Shown here piece by piece: positions 5,930 through 57,596 of a DNA stretch of 64,000 nt. Both the position numbers and the translations under genes were made by a program. Each line of letters begins with the position of its first letter. Within the stretch, counting starts at the first letter, position 1. A model generated the notes under the pieces. That model searched no databases. It was not told the origin of the DNA and was given only the letters and a program-made list of their open reading frames with translations. The stretch spans positions 27,083 to 91,082 of the forward strand of contig VGBH01000001.1 in the NCBI GenBank assembly GCA_016870575.1, read 5' to 3'. The stretch comes from Actinomycetota bacterium. Lineage in GTDB: Bacteria > Actinomycetota > Actinomycetes > S36-B12 > UBA5976.

Positions 5930-8900
5930 GTGTCACTAGCTGGCTTGCTTAAATACAGTTCTAAATCACCAGGATTGATTGAGCTATCAAATAATGGCTT
6001 TCAAAATGACCAGATAGTTAACGCCGCAAAGGCCTTGCACCCATTTGTGATTGCAAATGCAGCTTCAAATTCACAAACTATTATCGCGGTAACATCAACT
6101 AGTCGGGAAAGTGAAGACCTAGCAGCTGCAATATCTGATCTTGATTCAGATTTGACGGTTCGGGTTTTTCCAGCTTGGGAAACATTACCCCACGAAAAGT
6201 TAAGTCCTAGCAGAGAAGTTGTTGGAAAAAGAATTGCGCTCATTCATGAAATTAGGTCAGGCCAAAAATTAGATGTCATATGTGTTCCGCTGAGATCAAT
6301 GTTGCAACCATTCCCAAGTAACGTAGGTGAGCAAGCTCCATTATCACTTCAAGTGGGCGACAACATCGCCATAGAAGACTTGTCTAAAAGTTTAGTTCGA
6401 TTAGGTTATGAGCGTGTTGATTTAGTTGAACGTCGCGGACAAATTGCGATTAGAGGCGGCATAGTTGATGTCTTTTCGCCATTAGATAATCATCCTATTC
6501 GAATTGAATTTTGGGATGAGACCATAGATCAGCTAAGAAAGTTTAATGTTGCTGATCAACGCAGCATTAATGAAAAAGTTGAAAAAATCATTGCCCCAGG
6601 ATGTAGGGAAATATTACTCACTGAAGAAGTTAAGGAACGAGCAGCCCAGTTAGCATTAACCCAGCCTCTTTTTGCAGAATCCCTAACCGCAGTTGCTGAT
6701 GGCCGGTTGATTGACGGAATTGAATCCCTAGTCCCATTGCTAGTAGATGAGTTAAGCGTATTGGTAGAACTTTTGCCAAAAAATTCAAGCGTAGTGCTTT
6801 TAGAACCAGAGCGGATCAGATCTCGGGCTGAAGACTTAATTGAAACATCAGCAGAGTTTCTGCAGGCAGCCTGGTCAGTTGCAGCAAGTGGCGGATCTTC
6901 CCCGTTAAATTTAGATGCTTCTTCCTTTCGGTCATTAGGTGAACTACACGCAATTGCATTACAACATCAAGTTAATTGGAGCTCAGTTACTGCGTTAACA
7001 AGAGATGCCGAAGTTTCCAATTCAAGAATAATTGCAATTACAACAAATGAAGTATCTGGGTACAAATCAGATTTAGACAAAGTTGCAAATGATCTAAGTT
7101 CAGCAATTGATGCTGGTGCAGCAGTTGTAGTTGTGGCAGCAGGTGCAGGTTCAGCTCAAAGATATGCTGAATCTCTAACTGAACGCGGATTTAAGTTATC
7201 GAACACGATTTCATCGGGAAAAGTTTGGGTTACAAGTGGACAACTTACTTCTGGCTTTGAAATGCCTGAGTTATTTTTGCTCACTGAATCAGAGATAACT
7301 GGATTACCAAGCGCAATTTCAAGTCAAAACAAATTACCAACTAAGCGCAAAAGGCAAATTGACCCACTGTCACTTACTCCTGGCGATTACATCGTTCACG
7401 ATAATCACGGTATCGGTAAATTTCTGGAATTAATTGAACGAACAACAGCAGGTGCTACTAGAGAATATCTGGTTGTCGAATATGCGCCAAGTAAACGTGG
7501 GCAACCGGGAGATCGACTTTATCTGCCAACTGATCAGTTAGATCAGGTTAGCAAGTACGTTGGTGGTGAAACCCCAGAACTGAGCAAGATGGGTGGATCT
7601 GACTGGCAGCGAGCAAAAAGTCGAGCGCGAAAAGCAGTTAAAGAAATTGCAAGTGAGTTGATTCGACTTTATGCAGCTCGGCAAGCAGCACCCGGCTTTC
7701 AATTCTCTCCCGATACACCGTGGCAACATGAATTAGAAGATGCTTTTCCTTATCAAGAAACACCAGATCAGCTAGCAACAATTGAAGAAGTAAAGGCTGA
7801 TATGGAACGACCCATTCCAATGGATCGCGTAGTTTGTGGCGATGTGGGATTTGGAAAAACTGAGATTGCTCTAAGAGCTGCGTTCAAGGCGACTCAAGAT
7901 GGCAAACAGGTAGCAGTGCTAGCGCCAACCACGTTGTTGGTTCAACAACACCTTCAAACATTTACCCAAAGATTTGCACCATTTCCAGTTAAAGTCGCGG
8001 CTCTTTCAAGATTTCAGTCAGATAAAGAAGCAAAACAGGTAGTTGCAGATCTTGCGACTGGGAAAATTGATGTAGTTATTGGAACTCATCGCTTGTTGGG
8101 TAATGAAGTAGTTTTTAGAGACTTAGGTTTGGTGGTTATCGATGAGGAGCAACGTTTTGGTGTTGAGCACAAAGAACATCTGAAAGCACTTAGAGCACAT
8201 GTTGATGTTTTGGCTATGTCAGCAACACCGATACCTCGTACGTTAGAAATGTCAATTACGGGAATCCGAGATATGTCAGTGATGCAAACTCCACCTGAAG
8301 AAAGATTACCCGTGCTTACTTATGTCGGTCCATATGATTTGGGGCAAGTTACCGCAGCTATAAAACGTGAACTGATTCGTGATGGACAAATATTTTTTGT
8401 TCACAATAGAGTTGAATCAATCGACCGAGTTGCTGAAGAACTGCAAGTCGTATTGCCGCAAGCAAGAGTCGCTGTTGCACACGGGCAGATGAGTGAAACA
8501 TCTCTTGAGCAAACTGTAATTAAGTTTTGGCAGCGAGAAATTGATGTTTTGGTTTGTACCACAATTGTGGAATCAGGATTAGATATTCCAAATGCAAACA
8601 CATTAATTGTTGATCGAGCCGAGATGCTTGGACTATCGCAATTACATCAACTTCGTGGCAGAGTTGGCCGCAGTCGTGAGCGCGGATATGCCTATTTTTT
8701 CCATAGTGCCGATCGTGCACTTTCAGATACTGCACATGAACGGTTGGTAACAATCGCCCAGCAAAATACTTTAGGTGCAGGAATGGCTGTTGCGCTTAAG
8801 GATTTAGAAATCCGAGGAGCTGGGAATTTACTAGGTGGAGAGCAAAGTGGACATATTGCTGAGGTTGGTTTTGATTTGTATGTTCGAATGGTTGGAGAGG

Positions 8901-9385
8901 CATTAAACGACTTTCGTGGTCTATCGAGTGAAATAGGTACAGAAATGCGCCTGGAGTTACCTATCAACGCCTATATCCCGCATGACTGGATTATGGAAGA
9001 GCGATTGAGGTTAGAAGCCTATCGACGAATCAGTCAGGCAGATTCGCCCGAGATATTAGAAGATGTTCGAGTCGAACTATCCGACCGATATGGACAGCTT
9101 CCAGGAAGTGTTTCAGCCCTATTTTTGGTTGCGCTATTGCGCATTTATGCAAAAGGTCTTGGCTTAACTGAGATTGTTTTACAGGGCAACAATGTTCGAT
9201 TCGCTCCAATTCTGTTGCCAGATTCGATGCGGATGCGTTTAACTAGACTGTATCCAGGCACGATAGTTAAACCAACAACTCGAACCATTCTGGTACCTTT
9301 GCCTAAACCGACTCCAGAATTACTTACTTGGGTACGAGAACTGCTAGAAACTACAATTGAGCAGCCCATGATTCCGAAGGGATGA
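5930..9385 (+). CDS. mfd: transcription-repair coupling factor
   Basis: 1151 aa with a CarD-like RNAP-interaction region (GDYIVHDNHGIGKF) and superfamily-2 helicase motifs GDVGFGKTE and DEEQRFG. Confidence 0.95.
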   Translation: MSLAGLLKYSSKSPGLIELSNNGFQNDQIVNAAKALHPFVIANAASNSQTIIAVTSTSRESEDLAAAISDLDSDLTVRVFPAWETLPHEKLSPSREVVGKRIALIHEIRSGQKLDVICVPLRSMLQPFPSNVGEQAPLSLQVGDNIAIEDLSKSLVRLGYERVDLVERRGQIAIRGGIVDVFSPLDNHPIRIEFWDETIDQLRKFNVADQRSINEKVEKIIAPGCREILLTEEVKERAAQLALTQPLFAESLTAVADGRLIDGIESLVPLLVDELSVLVELLPKNSSVVLLEPERIRSRAEDLIETSAEFLQAAWSVAASGGSSPLNLDASSFRSLGELHAIALQHQVNWSSVTALTRDAEVSNSRIIAITTNEVSGYKSDLDKVANDLSSAIDAGAAVVVVAAGAGSAQRYAESLTERGFKLSNTISSGKVWVTSGQLTSGFEMPELFLLTESEITGLPSAISSQNKLPTKRKRQIDPLSLTPGDYIVHDNHGIGKFLELIERTTAGATREYLVVEYAPSKRGQPGDRLYLPTDQLDQVSKYVGGETPELSKMGGSDWQRAKSRARKAVKEIASELIRLYAARQAAPGFQFSPDTPWQHELEDAFPYQETPDQLATIEEVKADMERPIPMDRVVCGDVGFGKTEIALRAAFKATQDGKQVAVLAPTTLLVQQHLQTFTQRFAPFPVKVAALSRFQSDKEAKQVVADLATGKIDVVIGTHRLLGNEVVFRDLGLVVIDEEQRFGVEHKEHLKALRAHVDVLAMSATPIPRTLEMSITGIRDMSVMQTPPEERLPVLTYVGPYDLGQVTAAIKRELIRDGQIFFVHNRVESIDRVAEELQVVLPQARVAVAHGQMSETSLEQTVIKFWQREIDVLVCTTIVESGLDIPNANTLIVDRAEMLGLSQLHQLRGRVGRSRERGYAYFFHSADRALSDTAHERLVTIAQQNTLGAGMAVALKDLEIRGAGNLLGGEQSGHIAEVGFDLYVRMVGEALNDFRGLSSEIGTEMRLELPINAYIPHDWIMEERLRLEAYRRISQADSPEILEDVRVELSDRYGQLPGSVSALFLVALLRIYAKGLGLTEIVLQGNNVRFAPILLPDSMRMRLTRLYPGTIVKPTTRTILVPLPKPTPELLTWVRELLETTIEQPMIPKG

Positions 9386-9386
9386 A

Positions 9387-9980
9387 ATGAGATTTCGTAA
9401 GTTTGCACTAGTTGCTGTGATTGCATTACTACTTTCTGGCTGTGGTGCTAGTAATTCGGGTAATGCAGCGCGAGTTGCGGGCACCAATATCTCTGAATCA
9501 GCATTATCTGTAGCAGTGCAAGATCTAGCATCACAAGTAACTGCAAGTGAATTGGGAATATCTGATGCTGAACTTACCATTGAAGTACTAAATAGATTAG
9601 TGATTACTGAATTTATTCGTAAACTTGGGGCGGAAGCAGGAGTTACGGTCACATCAAGCGATGTTGCTGCAGAGCGCTCTCGAGTGCTGGCCGAGTTTGA
9701 GTCAGTGCAAGCAATGGAAGAAGCTGGTCTACAGCAAGCAATTGCACCTTCATTATTAAACAGTGTTTTTGAAATTTCTCTTTTTGTTAACGGAATTGGT
9801 GAAAAACTAGAACCAACTGGGGATGCAGCTGCGCAACAGAGTGCTTTTGAGTCTTTCCTTTCCGCATTTGTTGATAGTGCCGTAATTGAAGTTTCACCGA
9901 AATATGGACAATGGAATGCTGCATCAGCGTCAGTTATCGCTACAACTAATCCTTTAGTGATAGCTCCTGAGGAAAAATAG
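9387..9980 (+). CDS. lipoprotein of unknown function (SurA N-terminal-like)
   Basis: 197 aa with a signal peptide and lipobox LLLSGC. It is packed between mfd (1-nt gap) and mazG (0-nt gap). Confidence 0.6.
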   Translation: MRFRKFALVAVIALLLSGCGASNSGNAARVAGTNISESALSVAVQDLASQVTASELGISDAELTIEVLNRLVITEFIRKLGAEAGVTVTSSDVAAERSRVLAEFESVQAMEEAGLQQAIAPSLLNSVFEISLFVNGIGEKLEPTGDAAAQQSAFESFLSAFVDSAVIEVSPKYGQWNAASASVIATTNPLVIAPEEK

Positions 9981-10661
9981 ATGCCGCAACCGCTATCCAA
10001 CTTAAGTGGTGTAGCAAAGTTAGTCGCGGTGATGGATATTTTGCGATCACCTGGTGGTTGCCCTTGGGATGCAGAACAGACTCATAACTCTCTTTTGGAA
10101 TATTTGATTGAAGAATCTCACGAGCTTATTGAAGCAATTGAAACAGGAAATCGGATAGATCTAAGGGAAGAGCTAGGAGATGTATTACTGCAAGTAGTGT
10201 TTCACGCTCGAATTGCAATGGAAGATGAAAGCGATCCATTTAATTTAGATGAAGTTGCAGAGATAACTGCAGACAAACTTATGTCAAGACATCCACATGT
10301 ATTTGCAGATCAGTTAGCCAACACTGCGCAAGACGTTGAAGCAATTTGGCATCAACAGAAGATGCAAGAAAAGGGCAGAAAGTCGCTATTGGATGGGATT
10401 CCACGCACGTTACCAGCATTAATGCTGGCAACTAAAATGCTAAAGCGCACAAAGCAATATCAGATTGATATCCATTCAATTATCTCTTCTGAAACAAAAG
10501 TGAAAATTAAAACCAGTGATGAAATTGGAAAAGCTCTTTTTGATTTAGTCAAAATCGCCCGCGAGCACAAGATTGATCCAGAAGCAGCATTAAGACAAGC
10601 AATAAGGGAATACGAAGATAAAGTATTAGAAATTGAAGTTACAAACCAAGACGAGTCTTAG
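9981..10661 (+). CDS. mazG: nucleoside triphosphate pyrophosphohydrolase MazG
   Basis: 226 aa with the MazG EExxE/ELGD motifs (EESHELIEAIE...ELGDVLLQVVFHA). Confidence 0.85.
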   Translation: MPQPLSNLSGVAKLVAVMDILRSPGGCPWDAEQTHNSLLEYLIEESHELIEAIETGNRIDLREELGDVLLQVVFHARIAMEDESDPFNLDEVAEITADKLMSRHPHVFADQLANTAQDVEAIWHQQKMQEKGRKSLLDGIPRTLPALMLATKMLKRTKQYQIDIHSIISSETKVKIKTSDEIGKALFDLVKIAREHKIDPEAALRQAIREYEDKVLEIEVTNQDES

Positions 10662-11588: not shown

Positions 11589-12866
<1,278 letters not shown>

Positions 12867-49893: not shown

Positions 49894-49971
49894 GTAAGAG
49901 TATCTCTATTTACCCTTAACCAGTTTAAGTAAAGCTAAATTCAGCGTTATTCTTGGCCCATAACTAAATAG

Positions 49972-50345
49972 GGGGGTGAACGGCTTCGACATCGTTCGAA
50001 ATGACAGTTGAAGCGGGCAGAGAATCAATGGTTATCTCTTAAACATTCCATTGAACCTAAAAATGCCAAACATAAGGCATCTGATTTCGCCCTTGCTGCT
50101 TAATAAGTAGTAAGCCCGAATCCGTCGACCCAGGGCCGCTTCCTTCCTGGATTTCGGCGTCGCTGCGGAAGCTAACAAAGTGTGGGGGTCACGACCACAT
50201 AATGGAAATCTCTTTGTGACTTGAGCCAAGTGTTGCGACGGGCCACGAGATGCGCAACGGCTGACTACTTGAAATTGTGGCTGCGCCCGGAGAATGCCTG
50301 AAGTTATGACGTTGGACGCGGGTTCGATTCCCGCCACCTCCACCA
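49972..50345 (+). ncRNA. ssrA: transfer-messenger RNA (tmRNA)
   Basis: The 5' GGGGGTG pairs with the 3' CACCTCC (including the G3:U pair), followed by ACCA. The T-arm is GCGGGTTCGATTCCCGC. An internal tag ORF at 50065-50100 encodes AKHKASDFALAA and ends in tandem TAA TAA stops at 50101-50106. It lies directly after smpB. Confidence 0.9.
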
Positions 50346-50475
50346 AGTGTTAAGGATCCTTAATTTAACTATGTTTAATTGCAATCGGTTTCAGTATTTT
50401 TAGAGATTGTTTGCTAGAAACAAGAAATTAATCGTGCTTTGACTCAAACCTAAGTAAAGCAATAAGGTCGTTGCT

Positions 50476-51582
50476 GTGGACAGAATTTCAAAGATTGAGA
50501 CATTTGAAGCTCGCGTGCCACTTCCAGCTCCACTCGCCGTTGGTTCAGCCAAGATAACGCATCGCACATATTCAATTGTCAAAATCACAACAACTGATGG
50601 TTTAGTGGGTATCGGTTACTGCTACAGCAGGGGCTTACCAATCGCAAAACTAATTGCAGATGCAATGGCACCTGTAGCATTAAATCAAACAGCAGAATCA
50701 CCAAAAGAAATTAGAGAAATAGTTTTAGGATTTAATTGGCAATCAGCTGAGCATGGCACGGTGTCTGCGGCTGCAAGTGCTATTGATATGGCTCTCTACG
50801 ATATTGCAGCAAAACGACAAAATAAGAGTGTTGCTGCTTTACTTGGTGCAAAGGTTGCTGAGATACCCATCTACACAGTTATTGGTTACCACTATGGACC
50901 AGATGATTCAGGTCTGGCAGATGAAGTTGAGTATGCCTTAAGTAAAGGTATTAATTCATTCAAGATGGTGATGGGTGCCGAGTCACCAGAGCGCGATGTT
51001 GCACGAGTTAAGTTAGTAAGAGAAATCGCTGGAGCTAATGCACCAATTGCATTAGATGCATTTAGAACTTTAAAGACACTTGAAAATGCAGTTAATCGAG
51101 TAAATTTGTTAAGGGAACTCAACATCGCATTTATTGAAGATCCCTTCCTGGAATCAGAAGGTCTTTTGGCAATTGCACTGCGCGAAGCAACCGGGGTACC
51201 AGCCTCATTTGGAGAATCGCTTGCCTCAGCCAAGATGGCAGAGCAAGTTCTACATTACAAGCAAACAGACATTTTGCGAGTGGACGCATTAGTTATTGGG
51301 GGAGTAGACCAATTTCTAGCGGCAGCATCTGCAGCAGGTAATTATGGAAAGACATATGCCACACATATACACACGGAAGTGCATTCACAGTTAGCAGCAG
51401 CAACTTCAAACTTATATGCTGGTGGACTTGAGTATTTAGATCCAAAGTATGAGATAGATCTGTTTCATCATTTGCTAATCGCGCCCATAAATATTCTTGA
51501 TGGTAAAGCAGTATTGAGTAAAGAACCTGGTTTTGGTATCAATTGGGATTGGGACGCAGTTATTAAGTTCTCTAAGATTTAA
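50476..51582 (+). CDS. mandelate racemase / muconate lactonizing enzyme family protein (enolase superfamily; probable acid-sugar dehydratase or epimerase)
   Basis: 368 aa with an N-terminal capping domain (...IVKITTTDGLVGIGYCY...). Barrel motifs are SFKM, ALDAF, FIEDP, FGES, RVDA and THIH, which are candidate metal ligands and a His/Asp dyad. Confidence 0.85.
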   Translation: MDRISKIETFEARVPLPAPLAVGSAKITHRTYSIVKITTTDGLVGIGYCYSRGLPIAKLIADAMAPVALNQTAESPKEIREIVLGFNWQSAEHGTVSAAASAIDMALYDIAAKRQNKSVAALLGAKVAEIPIYTVIGYHYGPDDSGLADEVEYALSKGINSFKMVMGAESPERDVARVKLVREIAGANAPIALDAFRTLKTLENAVNRVNLLRELNIAFIEDPFLESEGLLAIALREATGVPASFGESLASAKMAEQVLHYKQTDILRVDALVIGGVDQFLAAASAAGNYGKTYATHIHTEVHSQLAAATSNLYAGGLEYLDPKYEIDLFHHLLIAPINILDGKAVLSKEPGFGINWDWDAVIKFSKI

Positions 51583-51595
51583 TGAAAGGTTTTGC

Positions 51596-52576
51596 TTGAA
51601 ACTGCTTGATGAAAACACAGTTGTTGATTACTTGATTAATCAGAAATTACTTGATGCTTCTGAGCAAGTTACAGTTGAACAGTTAACTGGTGGAGTGTCA
51701 AATACCGTTTTAGCGATTAAGACAAAAGACTCTGATCTTGTATTGAAGCAGGCATTGCCGGTCCTAAAGGTAGCTCAACATTGGGAAGCAGATCCGCGAA
51801 GAGCGATAGTAGAAGCTAATGCAATTGGGCTGTACCACTCAATTACCCCAAGTCACGTGCCGAGATTGGCTTTTCTTGATGCAGAAGCGTTTGTGTTAAT
51901 TATGCAGCGAGTACCTCGGGATAGCAGTGTGTGGAAAACGAATCTGTTATCAGGGAAGTTTCAATTCAATGTGGCGGAGGTATTGGGACATACCTTAGCG
52001 CAGTGGCACCTTTATGGTGAATCAAATTTTTCTCAATTACAGCATTTTCGAGAAGATGAATTATTTGAACAATTAAGGGTAGATCCATTTTATAGATTTG
52101 TAGCAATTAAAAACCCAAAAATTCAAAGCGATATCCAATTACTTATTGATGAGTTAGAACAACAACGTATAACTTTAGTTCATGGTGACTTCTCGCCAAA
52201 AAACATTATGGCTTCAAATTCTGGTCCAGTTTACATATTGGATTATGAGGTAACACATTTAGGTAATCCAGTTTTTGATTTGGCATTCTTACTGGGACAT
52301 CTGGTATGTAAATTTTTTCGTGCTCCCAAAGATCAAGAGAAAGATATAGCTGAAATGGCATCTAGCTTTATTACCAGTTATAAGTCAAAGCGTGATTTAC
52401 CATTATCGCTCGCTCACCATACGGCTCTAATTGCACTTGCAAGAGTTGAAGGTAAATCACCGGTAGATTATCTAGGCTTATCCCAGCAGAATAAACTACA
52501 AATCTTTACCAAAGAGGTACTATCTAATCCCATTGGATTAGATACTCTCACACTATTTGATTCGGATGCCAAATGA
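51596..52576 (+). CDS. MtnK-like / aminoglycoside-phosphotransferase-fold kinase of unknown substrate
   Basis: The N-lobe has LTGGVSNTVLAI...LVLKQALPVLKV...W..DPRRAIVEANAI, which resembles methylthioribose kinase. The catalytic loop is HGDFSPKN and the metal site is ILDYE. The TTG start at 51596 was chosen; the longest ORF starts at 51533, inside the previous gene. Confidence 0.75.
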   Translation: MKLLDENTVVDYLINQKLLDASEQVTVEQLTGGVSNTVLAIKTKDSDLVLKQALPVLKVAQHWEADPRRAIVEANAIGLYHSITPSHVPRLAFLDAEAFVLIMQRVPRDSSVWKTNLLSGKFQFNVAEVLGHTLAQWHLYGESNFSQLQHFREDELFEQLRVDPFYRFVAIKNPKIQSDIQLLIDELEQQRITLVHGDFSPKNIMASNSGPVYILDYEVTHLGNPVFDLAFLLGHLVCKFFRAPKDQEKDIAEMASSFITSYKSKRDLPLSLAHHTALIALARVEGKSPVDYLGLSQQNKLQIFTKEVLSNPIGLDTLTLFDSDAK

Positions 52577-53844
52577 AAATTGTCGATCTACTCGGATATC
52601 AAGTTTTAGATTCCCGCGGACGGCCAACCGTTGCTGCTCGAATAACTTTGGCAGATGGCAGTTCGCATGTTGCCAAAGTGCCATCTGGAGCATCAACAGG
52701 GCAGCACGAAGCTGCAGAACTTCGTGATGGCAAAATTACTGGCACAAATTCCTATTATTCTGGACTATCTGTAACTAATGCAGTTTCGAATATAAACAAT
52801 AAAATTAAACCTGTAATTATTGGTTTAGATATTAATTTAAATCAAGTTGATAGCAAGCTAATTGAATTAGATAGCTCAGAGCGATTTACAAATATCGGTG
52901 CAAATTCAACCCTTGCGGTATCGCTGGCTTCTAGCTTGGCGCATGCACATAGTCAGCAGAAATCTCTTGTTCGATTCTTTCAACCAAATGGCAAGTTAAT
53001 GATTCCGATGCCGATGATTAACATCCTTTCTGGCGGAGCGCATGCTAACCGTGGGATGGATATTCAAGATGTTTTGATAATTCCAATTGGAGCTAAATCT
53101 TTCTCTGAAGCGATTGCATGGGCAGCTGGTATTCGAGAAGCTGCTGCCAAATTGGGACAAGCAAAAGGAATGCTTACTCATTTAGTTGCTGATGAAGGTG
53201 GATTAGGAATTGCTTTTAACTCGGTTAATGCGGCATGTGAATTTGTAATTGAAGCGATAGGTTCGGTTGGACTAAAAGTTGGTCAAGAAGTGAGTTTGGC
53301 ACTTGATATTGCAGCTACCCAATTCTTTTCAGAGAACAATTATGTGTTAGCAAGTGCAAACAAGAGTTATTCTGGAAAAGAATTTGTTCAATTTATAGTT
53401 AACTTAGTAAATGATTTTCCAATAGTTTCAATTGAAGACCCCTTTGCTGAAGATGATTGGCAATCTTGGATTGATTTTAATCAGATTGCTCCAAAACCAA
53501 TTCAAATCTTGGGAGATGATTTACTTACAACAAATCTATCTCGATTAGAACGGGCGATTTTAGATAAAGCGGCAAATGCTATTTTGATTAAACCAAATCA
53601 AAATGGTTTGGTAACCAATACTGAGCACGTTGTTCGCAAGGCCAAAGAAGCGCGGTTCCGCACAGTTGTTTCAGCTCGATCTGGCGAGACAGAGGATTCA
53701 TGGTTAGCTGATTTGGCTGTTGGTTGGGGTGCTGGACAAATCAAAGTTGGTTCAACCCACGGATCGGAGCGCACAAGCAAATGGAATAGGTTGTTGGAGT
53801 TAGAGCTAATTGAAGACTGTGAGTTTGTTAACCCGTTTGCCTAA
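52573..53844 (+). CDS. divergent enolase paralogue (second enolase-family protein in this window)
   Basis: 423 aa, colinear with eno at 11589-12866. It retains SGASTG, DEGG, ALDIAAT, SIEDP, GDDL, IKPNQ, RSGETED and QIKVG, but has QDVL in place of QEFM and SARSGE in place of SHRSGE. It shares an ATGA overlap with the kinase gene. Confidence 0.85.
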   Translation: MKIVDLLGYQVLDSRGRPTVAARITLADGSSHVAKVPSGASTGQHEAAELRDGKITGTNSYYSGLSVTNAVSNINNKIKPVIIGLDINLNQVDSKLIELDSSERFTNIGANSTLAVSLASSLAHAHSQQKSLVRFFQPNGKLMIPMPMINILSGGAHANRGMDIQDVLIIPIGAKSFSEAIAWAAGIREAAAKLGQAKGMLTHLVADEGGLGIAFNSVNAACEFVIEAIGSVGLKVGQEVSLALDIAATQFFSENNYVLASANKSYSGKEFVQFIVNLVNDFPIVSIEDPFAEDDWQSWIDFNQIAPKPIQILGDDLLTTNLSRLERAILDKAANAILIKPNQNGLVTNTEHVVRKAKEARFRTVVSARSGETEDSWLADLAVGWGAGQIKVGSTHGSERTSKWNRLLELELIEDCEFVNPFA

Positions 53845-53854
53845 AATTATTTGG

Positions 53855-54892
53855 TTAGCGAAACTCAGGAATCTCCACTTTATAGCGGTCAGCAACCTCA
53901 AGAATGTTTTTAATAACACCTGAAGAAATAGCTACCCCATTCTTGCTCCGGCTCATCTGAGTTTGATATTCAAACTCACCCGGCATTAGCACACTATTTG
54001 GTTCACCAGCATTATGCATAATTAACTCAAATTCTTTTCCCACCGATTTGAATGCTTCAACCGAAGCAAATCTAGAAACATCAACTCCAATTAGAACTGT
54101 GCCGTTACCAAAACCGCTTTGGGAAATTGCTGCCGGCATGTTTCCCGATAAAATTCCAGCAGCTAAATCAATCAATACTGAAACACCCGATCCTTTATGA
54201 CCACCAAAAGTAAGCAGCGCACCACCATTTGTTAAGTCATCTGCATTAGTAGTGGGTTGACCATCTTTATCAAGAAGCAGACCTGGTTCTAAAACTTCAC
54301 CACTCATCCCAGCCAAGATAATTTTGCCGGCTGCCACGATTGCCGTAGAGAAGTCCAAAACATAATTAAATGCACCACTTCCGGGCAGCGACCAAGCAAA
54401 TGGGTTAGTACCCAGAACTCGTCTGAATCCACCAAATGGGGCAACAACCGCACCGCCGGTATTGCAAAATGCTATTCCCATAAGACCAGCACTTGCCATC
54501 AAATCTGCGTATTCGCCTAAGCGACCAACGTGGTTAGTTTGCTTTAGCACGATAGTTGCGGTGCCATATTGCTTAGTAAGTTCAATGAGTTTTTCAGTTG
54601 CAAGAAATGAAGCTGTCTGACCCCAACCCCAAGCACCATCAATCTCTGCGGTTGTTTCTTTACTAAACGCAATTTGTGGATGTGCTGCTGGAATTAACTT
54701 TCCCTGCTCTACCCAGCCGGAATATTCAACCAGTCGGATGATTCCGTGGGAATCATGACCAACTAAGTTTGAGAGTACTAGTGATTTTGCAACTGTGTTT
54801 GCAGATTTCGTCGGCGCACCCATTGCACCAATTACGCGAGCAGTTATTTCAGTTAGCGTTTGTGCGCTAAATGTATTGATTTCATTAGACAA
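53855..54892 (-). CDS. Ldh_2-family (malate / L-lactate / L-sulfolactate type) NAD(P)H-dependent oxidoreductase
   Basis: 345 aa with the family pattern ...GHDSHGI...NHVGRLG...TNP....P....DFSTA...GGHKGSG... Confidence 0.85.
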   Translation of the reverse strand: MSNEINTFSAQTLTEITARVIGAMGAPTKSANTVAKSLVLSNLVGHDSHGIIRLVEYSGWVEQGKLIPAAHPQIAFSKETTAEIDGAWGWGQTASFLATEKLIELTKQYGTATIVLKQTNHVGRLGEYADLMASAGLMGIAFCNTGGAVVAPFGGFRRVLGTNPFAWSLPGSGAFNYVLDFSTAIVAAGKIILAGMSGEVLEPGLLLDKDGQPTTNADDLTNGGALLTFGGHKGSGVSVLIDLAAGILSGNMPAAISQSGFGNGTVLIGVDVSRFASVEAFKSVGKEFELIMHNAGEPNSVLMPGEFEYQTQMSRSKNGVAISSGVIKNILEVADRYKVEIPEFR

Positions 54893-55838
54893 ATTTTGCC
54901 TCTACTAAACCTAAATCTCCAAAATCTACGCTAACTAAATCTCCTACTTGAACAAAACAATGACCGGTGCAAGTTCCGGTGCTGATAAATTCTCCAGCCT
55001 TGACATATCGGCCTCGCTCACGAAGCCAATTGATCATCCAAGTTGCGCTAGTAATTGGGTGTCCCATTGCTTGGAACCCTTGACCAGATTTGATGTAATT
55101 GTCATTTACATATAAGTCTAGATTCGCATTAGGTAAATCAATATCTTGCCAGTCTTTAAACTTGTTGCCAACTACAAAAGCAGCACCACCAGCGTTGTCA
55201 TACATTCCACCGAAGTATCCACTTAGGCTGTACCAGTCTTCAAAGACAGAATCACCAATCTCAATTACTGGTGCAAGAAATTCAACGCCAGCTCGAACAT
55301 CTGCTTCGGTATAGGGATTTACTCTTACTGGAAAATCAACTCCAAATTGGAAGGCAAACTCACATTCACAAAGTCGATAGTTAACGAAAAAATCAGATGG
55401 CACGTCAGCGGGACTATGCATTACTGAGCGAGTAAATAGTCTGCCAGGTGAAGGCTCTGGAATATTCTCGGCTTTGCGCACATCTAAGCTTGCAGCTCCA
55501 ACTTTCCAACCTGCACCTTCCCAGCATAGGGAATATTCCAAATTTAGTACGACATGCGCCATCGAATTCCACGACCTTGCACGTAGTCGCTCTGGCATTA
55601 CAACAGGAGTTCTACTCTTACGTCCAGATGAAATTAACTCAATTACCTCATTTAATTCAGCAGGAGATAAATCAGACTCACGACTAGATGGCTTTGATCC
55701 ACCGGGCGGGGTTGGGCCATGAATCAACCTGCCTCTGTCACTTAAATAGTCGGCGCGTGGTTTGTTTCGATTCGCACGAATAGTTGCTAACCGCGTAGAT
55801 TGATAATCATTCATAAGTTTGCACTTTAGCAGAATCAA
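54885..55838 (-). CDS. 2-oxopent-4-enoate hydratase-like (MhpD/HpcG-type, FAH-superfamily) hydratase/decarboxylase
   Basis: The core is ...GWKVGAAS...EFAF...EIGDS...GEFISTGTCTG... An alternative ATG lies at 55814. It overlaps the Ldh_2 gene by 8 nt. Confidence 0.7.
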   Translation of the reverse strand: MILLKCKLMNDYQSTRLATIRANRNKPRADYLSDRGRLIHGPTPPGGSKPSSRESDLSPAELNEVIELISSGRKSRTPVVMPERLRARSWNSMAHVVLNLEYSLCWEGAGWKVGAASLDVRKAENIPEPSPGRLFTRSVMHSPADVPSDFFVNYRLCECEFAFQFGVDFPVRVNPYTEADVRAGVEFLAPVIEIGDSVFEDWYSLSGYFGGMYDNAGGAAFVVGNKFKDWQDIDLPNANLDLYVNDNYIKSGQGFQAMGHPITSATWMINWLRERGRYVKAGEFISTGTCTGHCFVQVGDLVSVDFGDLGLVEAKFV

Positions 55839-55844
55839 ACTAGA

Positions 55845-56546
55845 TTAAGTAGTGGGAGCGAGTTGCCAATTCTCTTTACGAGCCCATTTGACTGTGATAT
55901 CAACAGCGATAAATGCAGCAGCAATGCTCCAGCCAACAAAAGCACCAGTTGCTAGATCTGTAATCCAATGGTGTCCCAACATTAAAGATCCAAGGGACAT
56001 CGTCCCCGTGATTGCCAAAGCTGCAAAAGCGCCAAGTGCGCTTGCAGTGTGCGACCAAGCACCTTTGCGTGAAAGCAAATAAAGTAGCACCAGCCAACTA
56101 AAGGCTGCATTTGCAGCATGGCCGGATGGGAACAAACCGATTTCACCCAAGGTATCTGGATTTAGAAATCTTGGTTCACCAGAGATTGGTCGACTTCGCG
56201 CCATCACAAGTTTCATTGCAGCGACTACAACATTTAGTGCGATAGTACCCAGAACTACTAAACCAATTGGATGCCAAGACCCCGTGGCGCGAAAAAGCCA
56301 GATTGCAACTATGAGCAAAATTGCAACAACTAAGAATCGCTGTCCAGCAAGAATCATAATTTCAGCTAAAGCCCAAAGTGCGCTACCGCGCTCAACCTGA
56401 ATTGCTAGTCCTGATTTATCCAGTCGCAATATCCAAGCGCGCTCTAAAGCAACTTGATAAGTAGTCCAAGATGCTGCAAGTGCCGAAACAACAGCAATCG
56501 CAACTAACAGCAACCTTCGTCGATCAATATTTTTCACATTAGTCAA
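55845..56546 (-). CDS. PAP2-superfamily membrane phosphatase
   Basis: 233 aa and polytopic, with the motifs ...SRP..., PSGHA and HHWITD. Confidence 0.75.
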   Translation of the reverse strand: MTNVKNIDRRRLLLVAIAVVSALAASWTTYQVALERAWILRLDKSGLAIQVERGSALWALAEIMILAGQRFLVVAILLIVAIWLFRATGSWHPIGLVVLGTIALNVVVAAMKLVMARSRPISGEPRFLNPDTLGEIGLFPSGHAANAAFSWLVLLYLLSRKGAWSHTASALGAFAALAITGTMSLGSLMLGHHWITDLATGAFVGWSIAAAFIAVDITVKWARKENWQLAPTT

Positions 56547-56594
56547 TTTCTGTTTTGGTGCACTAATTATCTAAGGTCTTGCTGTGAAACAAGA

Positions 56595-57596
56595 CTACTC
56601 GCCTAGAATTGTGGCGATTAAAATTGCTTTAGTGGTGTGCAGCCGATTTTCCGCTTGATCAAAAGCGATGTTTGCGTTTGATTGAAATACATCATCTGTT
56701 ACTTCTAAACCACCGGAAATGCCGGCAAGTTGTGCTGCAGCCAGACCTACTTCCGTTTTCTCATCGTGAAAGGCAGGTAAACAATGCATAAATTTAGCAT
56801 CTTTAGCAGCGCTGTTCATTAGTTCTTTATTAACTTGATAGGGCAGTAATTTATCGATGCGTTCTTTCCAAACCGATTTAGGTTCACCCATTGAAACCCA
56901 AACATCAGTATGTACAAACTCCGCATCTTTTACTGCATCAGTTGGGGATTGAGTTAAATTTAATTTTGCTCCAGTTTTCTCGGCAATTTGGTTTGCCTGA
57001 GCAATAAGAGCATCATCTGGCCAAAGCGATTTTGGCGCGCCAATCGTAAAGGTTAAACCTAAAATTGCAGAGGTAATTAAAAAAGAATTACCCATATTGT
57101 TTCTAGCATCACCAAGATAGCAGAATTTTAAATCAGCAAGAGGCTTTTTTGCTGATTCTTGCATTGTTAATAAGTCTGCCAACATCTGAGTTGGGTGGAA
57201 TTGATCAGTTAGACCATTAATTACTGGTACGGTTGAATTAGCTGCTAGCTCCTCAACTGTTTCTTGAAGTGCACCTCGAAACATAATTGCGTCATACATT
57301 CTTGATAGAACTTTTGCGGTATCAGCAATTGACTCTTTATGGCCAAGCTGAGCTGAGGTTGAATCAAAAACTGTGCTGCTACCACCCTGCTGGGTCATTG
57401 CCACTTCAAAAGCAGCTCTAGTTCGAGTTGAGGTTTTTTCAAATATAAGTGCTACCGATTTGCCGACTAGACGTTGAAGTTCGCTGCCAGATTTAGTCTG
57501 TTTTTTGAGATCTATTGCTAACTTAAGTAAGTAATGGAATTCAGCTGCGGATAAATCAGTTTCTTTAGTAAATGATCTTCCTTGAAGCGTCTTCAT
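56595..57596 (-). CDS. argF: ornithine carbamoyltransferase (ArgI/ArcB-like long form)
   Basis: 333 aa with STRTR, HPTQ, DVWVSMG and HCLPAFHDEKT motifs. The C-terminus is FDQAENRLHTTKAILIATI. Confidence 0.92.
   Translation of the reverse strand: MKTLQGRSFTKETDLSAAEFHYLLKLAIDLKKQTKSGSELQRLVGKSVALIFEKTSTRTRAAFEVAMTQQGGSSTVFDSTSAQLGHKESIADTAKVLSRMYDAIMFRGALQETVEELAANSTVPVINGLTDQFHPTQMLADLLTMQESAKKPLADLKFCYLGDARNNMGNSFLITSAILGLTFTIGAPKSLWPDDALIAQANQIAEKTGAKLNLTQSPTDAVKDAEFVHTDVWVSMGEPKSVWKERIDKLLPYQVNKELMNSAAKDAKFMHCLPAFHDEKTEVGLAAAQLAGISGGLEVTDDVFQSNANIAFDQAENRLHTTKAILIATILGE

Follow-up and report, generated by a model that had tools for sequence, protein, structure and literature searches.

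To our knowledge the enolase family proper is treated as having a single function, and automatic annotation names every one of its members phosphopyruvate hydratase. One enolase homologue, the carboxyphosphonoenolpyruvate synthase of phosphinothricin biosynthesis, belongs to secondary metabolism and acts on a non-standard 2-substituted glycerate. In catabolism, the conversion of a hydroxy acid to a 2-phospho-acid and of this to a phosphoenol acid is known from the combination of a glycerate 2-kinase (garK/glxK) with enolase at the end of sugar-acid breakdown, as in the non-phosphorylative Entner-Doudoroff (ED) pathway. The known glycerate kinases have the folds of the GarK/GlxK and MOFRL families, and we know of no glycerate operon that carries an enolase of its own. 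The product of glycerate 2-kinase is 2-phosphoglycerate (2-PG; PMC4378991). Here we compare with these systems a pair of genes, encoding an APH-fold kinase and a homologue of enolase (enolase-2), which form part of a cluster of five genes in a window of 64,000 nucleotides (the whole stretch of DNA that was analysed) from contig VGBH01000001.1 of a freshwater Actinomycetota bacterium. We propose, with a probability of about 0.5, that the kinase makes a 2-phospho-2,3-dihydroxy acid other than 2-PG and that enolase-2 dehydrates it to a phosphoenol-2-oxo-acid.

The pair shares with glycerate 2-kinase and enolase the order of the reactions, but its kinase has another fold, its enolase is a dedicated and altered one, and the two genes are coupled or fused. 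Carboxyphosphonoenolpyruvate synthase tolerates a changed 2-oxygen group, whereas enolase-2 has its 2-phosphate site intact and is changed on the C3 side, and the kinase-enolase module is widespread and found in catabolic contexts. The pair also resembles LxmK/LxmY (PDB 9dk3), in which an APH-fold kinase activates a hydroxyl group and its partner carries out the elimination, LxmK being among the fold matches of our kinase; in LxmK/LxmY, however, it is the phosphate itself that leaves, while in the kinase-enolase module it would stay on the product, because the phosphate-binding site of enolase-2 is conserved. The module is not described in NCBIfam (June 2026 release), Pfam or the PDB, and literature searches on the dyad, on divergent enolases and on the candidate 2-phospho-acids found no description, most subscription journals lying outside their coverage. 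An earlier reading of this DNA from its sequence alone (the sequence-only reading) knew of no characterised pathway with this set of genes, and none was found in the family libraries, structures or literature searched.

The evidence for the pair as a unit comes from its recurrence. The kinase, as the more specific of the two proteins, served as the search marker, and scans of genome and metagenome collections, together with direct look-ups, yielded about 170 loci, in which adjacency was measured by tblastn since simple gene calling dropped genes in high-GC loci. Although these loci were fetched by kinase similarity alone, 155 of the 159 that extend far enough past the kinase gene have an enolase gene directly downstream of it; the two reading frames overlap, stop on start, by 4 nt in 125 loci and by 1 nt in 10. 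Because it recurs in this way, the adjacency of the two genes is not due to chance. The pair is present in Nanopelagicales, Microbacterium yannicii, M. murale, Acidimicrobiaceae, Gaiellales and Thermoleophilia, and the reciprocal search from the enolase side found it in Planctomycetota (Gemmataceae, Gimesia), with the kinase adjoining or within 2.6 kb. Three cluster representatives in a library of 1.8 billion proteins, P0249 (745 aa), P0274 (770 aa) and the truncated P0262 (595 aa), are apparent fusions, in which a single polypeptide begins with the APH domain and ends with an enolase of the Asp168 type; they either are genuine fusions or result from frameshift errors at the overlap of 4 nt. 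The conserved unit consists of two genes, the MtnK-fold kinase and then the paralogous enolase. Near-universal adjacency, overlap of stop and start, fusion proteins and a spread over two or more phyla support the view that the two proteins act as a coupled pair, and this part of the sequence-only reading, which had joined kinase and enolase-2 in one branch, stands. The co-occurrence across phyla that it had put forward as a check was found for the pair, in Actinomycetota and Planctomycetota, but the five-gene set is not general. Like this coupling, the active-site pattern of the clade, its retained catalytic apparatus and the carbohydrate-related neighbours described below are direct observations.

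Enolase-2 has the fold and length of glycolytic enolase and is 42% identical to the housekeeping enolase of the window, and the housekeeping copy does sit elsewhere in the window, in the eno-ftsB-DUF501-ppx context that the sequence-only reading had given it. With 417 bits on TIGR01060, where the cut-off is 300, enolase-2 passes the enolase equivalog and is for this reason named phosphopyruvate hydratase by annotation pipelines. The NCBI records for Planctomycetes give the divergent enolase this same name. An alignment of 158 kinase-linked enolases (residues are given in yeast enolase numbering) showed S39, H159, E211, D246, E295, D320, K345, R374, S375 and K396 to be invariant. Metal ligands, Lys345 and Glu211, Lys396 and the 2-phosphate site (Arg374, Ser375, Ser39, His159) are thus common to enolase-2 and the glycolytic enolases (TIGR01060/PF00113), from which the clade differs by E168D, H373A, E251Q and changes at five further positions, and by a gene that is nearly always coupled or fused to the kinase and is additional to a canonical copy. 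Asp replaces Glu168 in all 146 of the 146 kinase-linked enolases compared at this position, Ala replaces His373 in 133 of 134 and Gln replaces Glu251 in 131 of 143, whereas the canonical enolases, that of the window included, keep Glu168 and His373. The further changes are Asn155 to Ser, Met170 to Leu, Ala399 to Ser, Thr397 to Val or Ile and Pro400 to Thr, Leu or Val, each found in all kinase-linked enolases.

We take Glu168 and His373 to form the C3-hydroxyl side of the 2-PG pocket, and mutation of either residue severely slows the elimination step of enolase. Lys345 takes the C2 proton, Glu211 helps the C3 hydroxyl to leave, and Arg374 and Ser375 hold the 2-phosphate together with the second Mg2+. 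Since the catalytic, metal and phosphate residues are invariant, the enolase chemistry and the 2-phosphate site have presumably been kept, and the pattern as a whole says that the substrate of the clade should still be a 2-phospho-carboxylate, with more room or different contacts around C3. Residues 168 and 373 co-vary in the 150 closest cluster representatives at 50% identity, 34 of which have Asp/Ala and 104 Glu/His, with few intermediates. A first neighbour-joining tree with midpoint rooting gave no clean Asp168 clade; when the signature columns were removed, 38 of 41 Asp168 proteins fell on one side of a single split in a tree that is unrooted and made by a crude method. The Asp168/Ala373 enolases appear to form an old clade of their own. 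No divergent enolase is present in the PDB, and all the solved structures matched by enolase-2 are ordinary enolases.

The kinase is a member of Pfam APH (PF01636; 58.9 bits against a gathering score of 23.2), and its HGDFSPKN (HxDxxxxN) and D-x-E motifs are invariant in two kinase alignments. No NCBIfam equivalog covers it, the best match being TIGR01767 MTRK with 87 bits against a cut-off of 275. MtnK is also the nearest solved structure by sequence, and an AlphaFold model of the kinase (pLDDT 88) matches MtnK best (2olc, 2pun, 2pyw; TM 0.77-0.80, E ~1e-15), followed by PsiK, so that the likeness to MtnK noticed earlier was recovered by family, sequence and fold. What the kinase shares with MtnK (TIGR01767; 2olc, 2pul, 2pyw) is the fold and the N-lobe motif KQALP with the conserved W and R after it. 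Compared with MtnK it is about 60-70 residues shorter, its partner is an enolase, it has no methionine-salvage context and its catalytic loop, HGDFSPKN, is that of APH and choline kinases; the catalytic loop of MtnK has a different form. Neither mtnA, mtnB, mtnC/W/X nor mtnD is among the conserved neighbours in the roughly 170 loci, and no methionine-salvage genes were found in the parts of the window that were checked, namely the cluster with its flanks (about 45.6-60.2 kb) and the neighbourhood of eno. By score, motifs and context alike the kinase is not a methylthioribose kinase, a function that the sequence-only reading had called unlikely. Homologues of the kinase number more than 3500 in a large protein collection, the closest coming from Candidatus Planktophila and Nanopelagicaceae, and database names for them are limited to 'aminoglycoside phosphotransferase family protein' and '5-methylthioribose kinase'. 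The latter label, which many members carry at JGI in spite of the score on MTRK, is an annotation hazard. The orthologue in Planctomycetota is 35% identical over its full length, and a homologue is also found in Chloroflexota, on a 2-kb contig.

Taking these results together, we suggest the following sequence of reactions. The kinase would use ATP to phosphorylate the 2-hydroxyl group of a free 2,3-dihydroxy-carboxylic acid arising from sugar or sugar-acid breakdown. Enolase-2 would then eliminate the 3-hydroxyl group by the two-Mg2+ chemistry of glycolytic enolase, with Lys345 as the base and Glu211 as the acid, to yield a phosphoenol-2-oxo-acid; no Fe-S or MR/MLE dehydratase would be needed, and the phosphoryl group would end up in an energy-rich enol phosphate. 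If the acid were glycerate, the product would be phosphoenolpyruvate (PEP); from a longer acid it would be a 3-substituted PEP, from which a pyruvate-kinase-type enzyme or a phosphatase could form a 2-keto-3-deoxy acid. In the window, the pair ends an operon led by a putative MR/MLE acid-sugar dehydratase and faces a presumed Ldh_2 2-oxoacid reductase and an MhpD-like hydratase or decarboxylase. What we infer here is which position is phosphorylated, which acid serves as substrate and what becomes of the product. The natural substrate probably has a larger C3 group than 2-PG, because every member of the clade swaps both residues that pack on the C3 hydroxyl (Glu168 to Asp, His373 to Ala), and an acid sugar of the tetronate or pentonate type would be most likely. 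A substrate other than 2-PG is also suggested by the canonical enolase already present in the same small genome, and by operons such as that of locus L088, which have a dehydrogenase, a lactonase, the kinase and the enolase but no dehydratase. The coupling and fusion of the two genes would make sense if the intermediate were a 2-PG analogue that inhibits glycolysis when released. Stated in full, as a second function of the enolase family in which an ATP-primed, Fe-S-independent dehydration converts a C3-substituted 2,3-dihydroxy acid to a phosphoenol-2-oxo-acid that is not PEP, with conservation of the phosphoryl bond, the proposal has in our view slightly less than an even chance of being correct.

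The recurrent neighbours of the pair are carbohydrate and acid-sugar enzymes, which we counted in the 109 loci whose sequence reaches 3.5 kb or more upstream from the kinase gene. One context (type B, 38-39 of the 109 loci) has the order SMP-30 lactonase, U32-like protein, small short-chain dehydrogenase/reductase (SDR), kinase, enolase, and this operon faces an IlvD/EDD dehydratase, a XylX-like FAH enzyme and an aldehyde dehydrogenase. At the type-B locus L044 a 310-aa protein (8376-9308) and a 224-aa SDR (9312-9986) lie upstream of the pair. The 310-aa protein of this context has a partial and weak match to Peptidase_U32, two cysteines only, and no NCBIfam or PDB match; we considered it as the equivalent of an AP_endonuc_2 or NagB-like protein and rejected this, as it has no detectable similarity to either. 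A genuine L-arabinose isomerase (AraA) and an ABC sugar transporter precede kinase and enolase in 11 of the 109 loci. On the high-GC metagenome contig L088 the order is TIM barrel, SDR, lactonase, kinase, enolase, whereas in Microbacterium the enolase is followed by a D-2-hydroxyacid dehydrogenase. Two more high-GC metagenome contigs, L086 and L090, have near the pair an SDR as well as an orthologue of the MhpD-like protein (328 bits), and L086 also has UxuA. Thermoleophilia-type contigs carry an overlapping operon of four genes, PIG-L, NagB-like, kinase and enolase, and in Gimesia a 37% identical PIG-L gene lies beside the pair in divergent orientation (positions for these observations are L083 8065-9988, L087 7575-9004, L178 7365-9004 and L172 5462-6406). 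The M. murale locus (L089 5637-13566) has the pair flanked by an apparent set for aromatic-ring cleavage, comprising a TetR regulator, an FAH hydrolase, a VOC/glyoxalase-fold protein and a FAD monooxygenase, with the D-2-hydroxyacid dehydrogenase and a second FAD monooxygenase on the other flank. The 'epimerase-family' neighbours were rejected as a single orthologous partner across phyla, their identity being 22% or undetectable.

The three other genes of the cluster follow the pair less faithfully than the sequence-only reading had assumed in treating all five as a co-conserved set. The MR/MLE gene is found upstream of the pair and co-oriented with it in 23 of the 109 loci (23-25 for presence near the pair). 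Within 9 kb of the pair, Ldh_2 is found in 6 loci and the MhpD-like gene in 7, and their arrangement takes three different forms. The five-gene set occurs with the same layout in the nearest relatives (L001, L002, L007 and exact-match contigs), and L028 and L068 carry it rearranged, with Ldh_2, the FAH gene and an epimerase-family gene on one strand and MR/MLE, kinase and enolase on the other. Because of this recurrence the tie of the three genes to the pair is probably functional but optional. By score or by key residues, none of the three proteins is a characterised member of its family. The MR/MLE protein has both domains of its superfamily (PF02746/PF13378) and matches L-talarate/galactarate dehydratase best, both in NCBIfam (150 bits against a cut-off of 500) and in structure (PDB 2pp0). 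Aligned to 2pp0 it retains all three metal ligands and the dyad of His328 and Asp301, and D194, E221 and E247 are invariant as metal ligands, but the catalytic Lys197 is a Val here and V, I or T in all 31 orthologues. With the second base missing from all of them, the enzyme is probably not a racemase but an acid-sugar dehydratase that works with one base, and we set aside the idea that it might feed the kinase as a 2-hydroxyacid racemase. Its earlier assignment to the acids of the pathway fares no better, a dehydratase of this kind being more likely than an enzyme acting on phospho-acids.

The Ldh_2 protein falls under the cut-off of every NCBIfam equivalog against which it was scored, for functions comprising malate/lactate/ureidoglycolate, sulfolactate and diketogulonate dehydrogenation (214 of 336 bits on PRK10098, 179 of 500 on sulfolactate dehydrogenase, 132 of 356 and 110 of 316 on the others), and its nearest structures are the archaeal malate dehydrogenase 1v9n, 2g8y and ComC 2x06. 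The FAH protein reaches 72-80 bits on HpaH, DmpH, DmpE and MhpD, whose cut-offs are 350-409. Its best PDB matches are NahK (5d2i) and MhpD (1sv6), with homology confined to the C-terminal 210 residues; at the N-terminus the protein is extended by about 100 aa that have no counterpart in the MhpD, NahK and HpaH structures. The length of this extension is conserved in the orthologue at L086 4639-5619. The 'Route III' pentonate pathway, which had been suspected for the combination of MR/MLE, Ldh_2 and FAH proteins, was rejected, since that route uses different families, namely a UxaA/GarD dehydratase, an SDR and an acylpyruvate-type hydrolase (PMC6336799).

Several points weigh against a substrate other than 2-PG. 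Enolase-2 passes TIGR01060 and keeps every residue needed for 2-PG, the catalytic, metal and phosphate residues included, and the argument about the size of the pocket is drawn from a sequence alignment and from known crystal structures. The neighbours vary widely by lineage, the Planctomycetota pair stands almost alone, and no conserved third gene to handle a 3-substituted PEP was found among the loci; stand-alone pairs and varied neighbours are easier to reconcile with widely available metabolites, glycerate and PEP for instance, than with an exotic acid sugar. MtnK and PsiK, the closest characterised relatives of the kinase, phosphorylate an anomeric or a phenolic hydroxyl group rather than an acid at its 2-hydroxyl. 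Aldehyde dehydrogenases and hydroxypyruvate-reductase-like enzymes (GhrB/PGDH-like D-2-hydroxyacid dehydrogenase) among the neighbours are what a glycerate route needs, and together with the 2-keto-3-deoxy-6-phosphogluconate (KDPG) aldolase and the talarate/galactarate-dehydratase-like enzyme they could supply C3 compounds. The kinase might then be a new APH-fold D-glycerate 2-kinase and enolase-2 an isofunctional enolase converting 2-PG to PEP, as the lower part of a non-phosphorylative route comparable to the archaeal non-phosphorylative ED pathway or to gar/glx of E. coli, and this would explain the stand-alone pairs, whose substrate has to be common and whose product has to be central. We nevertheless regard this as rather unlikely, though deserving of serious attention, because E168D and H373A are invariant across an old clade, which would be unexpected for a copy doing the same job, because these streamlined genomes (about 1.3-1.5 Mb) already have a canonical enolase, and because tight translational coupling and fusion suggest an intermediate that is kept from release, unnecessary in the case of 2-PG. 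The modified 2-phosphoglycerate suggested in the sequence-only reading fits the changes on the C3 side, but plain glycerate retains some weight beside it. That reading had gone further: the pair would make a phosphoenol acid, and the 2-oxo and 2-hydroxy acids that belong to it would be processed by the MR/MLE enzyme, the hydratase and the Ldh_2 enzyme. The intact set in the nearest relatives, its rearranged recurrence, the MhpD-like orthologues near the pair in L086 and L090 and, in high-GC lineages, a 2-oxoacid reductase of another family (2-Hacid_dh) beside the pair all speak for such a pathway of five genes; we find it unlikely given the low counts of the three genes, the majority of pairs being in other operons, an MR/MLE enzyme that looks like a self-sufficient dehydratase, and our failure to build a chemically continuous route of five steps.

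Other chemistries can be written for the pair. In a desulfonation route the kinase would act on 3-sulfolactate, and enolase-2 would eliminate sulfite from 2-phospho-3-sulfolactate to give PEP, in a reversal of the ComA reaction of coenzyme M biosynthesis that would complete the breakdown of sulfoquinovose. The enzymes of the sulfo-ED pathway belong to the SDR, lactonase, IlvD/EDD dehydratase, KDPG-type aldolase and aldehyde dehydrogenase families, and the commonest context of the pair in Nanopelagicales has the same families (SDR, SMP-30 lactonase, IlvD/EDD, KDPG-type aldolase, aldehyde dehydrogenase); the Ldh_2 protein matches L-sulfolactate dehydrogenase and ComC, and an enlarged C3 pocket would suit a sulfonate. 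That context, however, also holds a PfkB kinase, a XylX-like FAH enzyme and what would by sequence be a FucU/RbsD-like mutarotase, which together fit ordinary Weimberg or fucose-type routes better, and neither a sulfoquinovosidase nor a sulfite exporter was seen among the neighbours. Residues 168 (Asp) and 211 (Glu) are acidic in all members, as needed for a hydroxyl leaving group and unfavourably for a sulfonate, and the literature searched gave no support, so that we hold desulfonation to be improbable. Very improbable, too, is a bypass of the Fe-S dihydroxy-acid dehydratase, in which 2,3-dihydroxy-isovalerate (or 2,3-dihydroxy-3-methylvalerate) would be converted through its 2-phospho ester to the enol phosphate of the 2-oxo acid. 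In their configuration at C2 the natural (2R) intermediates agree with D-2-PG, their alkyl groups at C3 need extra space, and the changes of H373 to A, T397 to V or I and M170 to L give the pocket smaller or more hydrophobic side chains; stand-alone pairs would also be accounted for if the module were self-contained and both its substrate and its product were common. No branched-chain amino-acid genes adjoin the pair in any locus viewed, however, the neighbours being carbohydrate enzymes, and the product would be a tetrasubstituted enol phosphate without a known consumer. As to a variant of methylthioribose or 5-deoxyribose salvage, with the kinase acting like MtnK on a ribose derivative, the fold and the N-lobe motifs nearest to MtnK and the JGI name of many members would agree with it, but the score on MTRK and the APH/choline-kinase type of the catalytic-loop motifs do not, mtnA, mtnB, mtnC, mtnD and the aldolase are none of them a conserved neighbour, and an enzyme of the enolase family requires a carboxylate substrate; we give this explanation hardly any credence.

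If the kinase-linked clade does use a 2-phospho-acid other than 2-PG, a widespread new enzyme activity would be added to the enolase family and a new specificity to the kinases, and a phosphoenol-2-oxo-acid other than PEP would be a class of metabolite not known in primary metabolism. Thousands of 'enolase' and '5-methylthioribose kinase' annotations would then have to be corrected, and a gap would be filled in models of carbon use by Nanopelagicales (acI), which are among the most abundant freshwater bacteria and retain the pair in genomes of only about 1.3-1.5 Mb. Should the substrate be plain glycerate, the kinase would still represent a new fold class of glycerate kinase. Cultured carriers of the pair are Microbacterium yannicii DSM 23203, M. 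murale and Gimesia. The pair is also present in the complete genomes NZ_CP016774.1, CP015604.1, OZ254147, OZ254158, OZ254161, OZ254162 and OZ254174.

The organization of the cluster is given in Table 1. The open reading frame (ORF) table and Pfam confirmed the five genes with the positions, strands and families read earlier, as well as the 4-nt overlap (ATGA) of kinase stop and enolase-2 start, the 8-nt mutual overlap of the Ldh_2 and FAH genes and the exactly 10 nt between the convergent stop codons of enolase-2 and Ldh_2.

Table 1. Positions of the clustered genes and of other features in the window
Feature	Position	Strand	Family and remarks
MR/MLE enzyme	50476-51582	+	Pfam MR_MLE_N + MR_MLE_C; first gene of plus-strand operon
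APH-family kinase	51596-52576	+	Pfam APH; MtnK-fold
Enolase homologue (enolase-2)	52573-53844	+	Pfam Enolase_N + Enolase_C; last gene of operon
Ldh_2 dehydrogenase	53855-54892	-	Pfam Ldh_2, 281 bits; convergent on enolase-2
MhpD/HpaH/4-oxalocrotonate-decarboxylase-like FAH-superfamily gene	54885-55838	-	Pfam FAA_hydrolase, 24.5 bits
Housekeeping enolase (canonical)	11589-12866		followed by DivIC/FtsB, DUF501, Ppx-GppA
tmRNA gene	49972-50345		

The kinase start is a TTG behind an AAAGG ribosome-binding site, and public gene calls agree with it (326 aa). For the FAH gene, public gene calls and the closest relatives place the start 24 nt further in, at 55814 (309 aa), which is probably the true start rather than 55838. 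The first gene of the cluster begins 131 nt past the tmRNA gene, and the segment between smpB/tmRNA and the PAP2 gene is variable among close relatives (window 50346-55845, compared with 4838-14787 in L001, where an additional FAD/NAD(P)-binding oxidoreductase stands ahead of the MR/MLE gene and a 125-aa gene and an acyltransferase_3/SGNH gene lie beyond the FAH gene). A tmRNA-targeted genomic island was considered and rejected, as the 3' end of the tmRNA is not directly repeated in positions 49900-57000 and no ORF for an integrase was found; the cluster is best explained as a small acid-sugar catabolic islet beside the tmRNA gene. An ORF of 104 aa antisense to the tmRNA (window 50032-50346, minus strand; L175 460-774 in public gene calls) is almost certainly spurious. 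The GC content goes down to 0.389 over 52001-54000, where the kinase and enolase-2 lie, compared with about 0.43 for the window, and the GC skew is negative across the convergent minus-strand genes.

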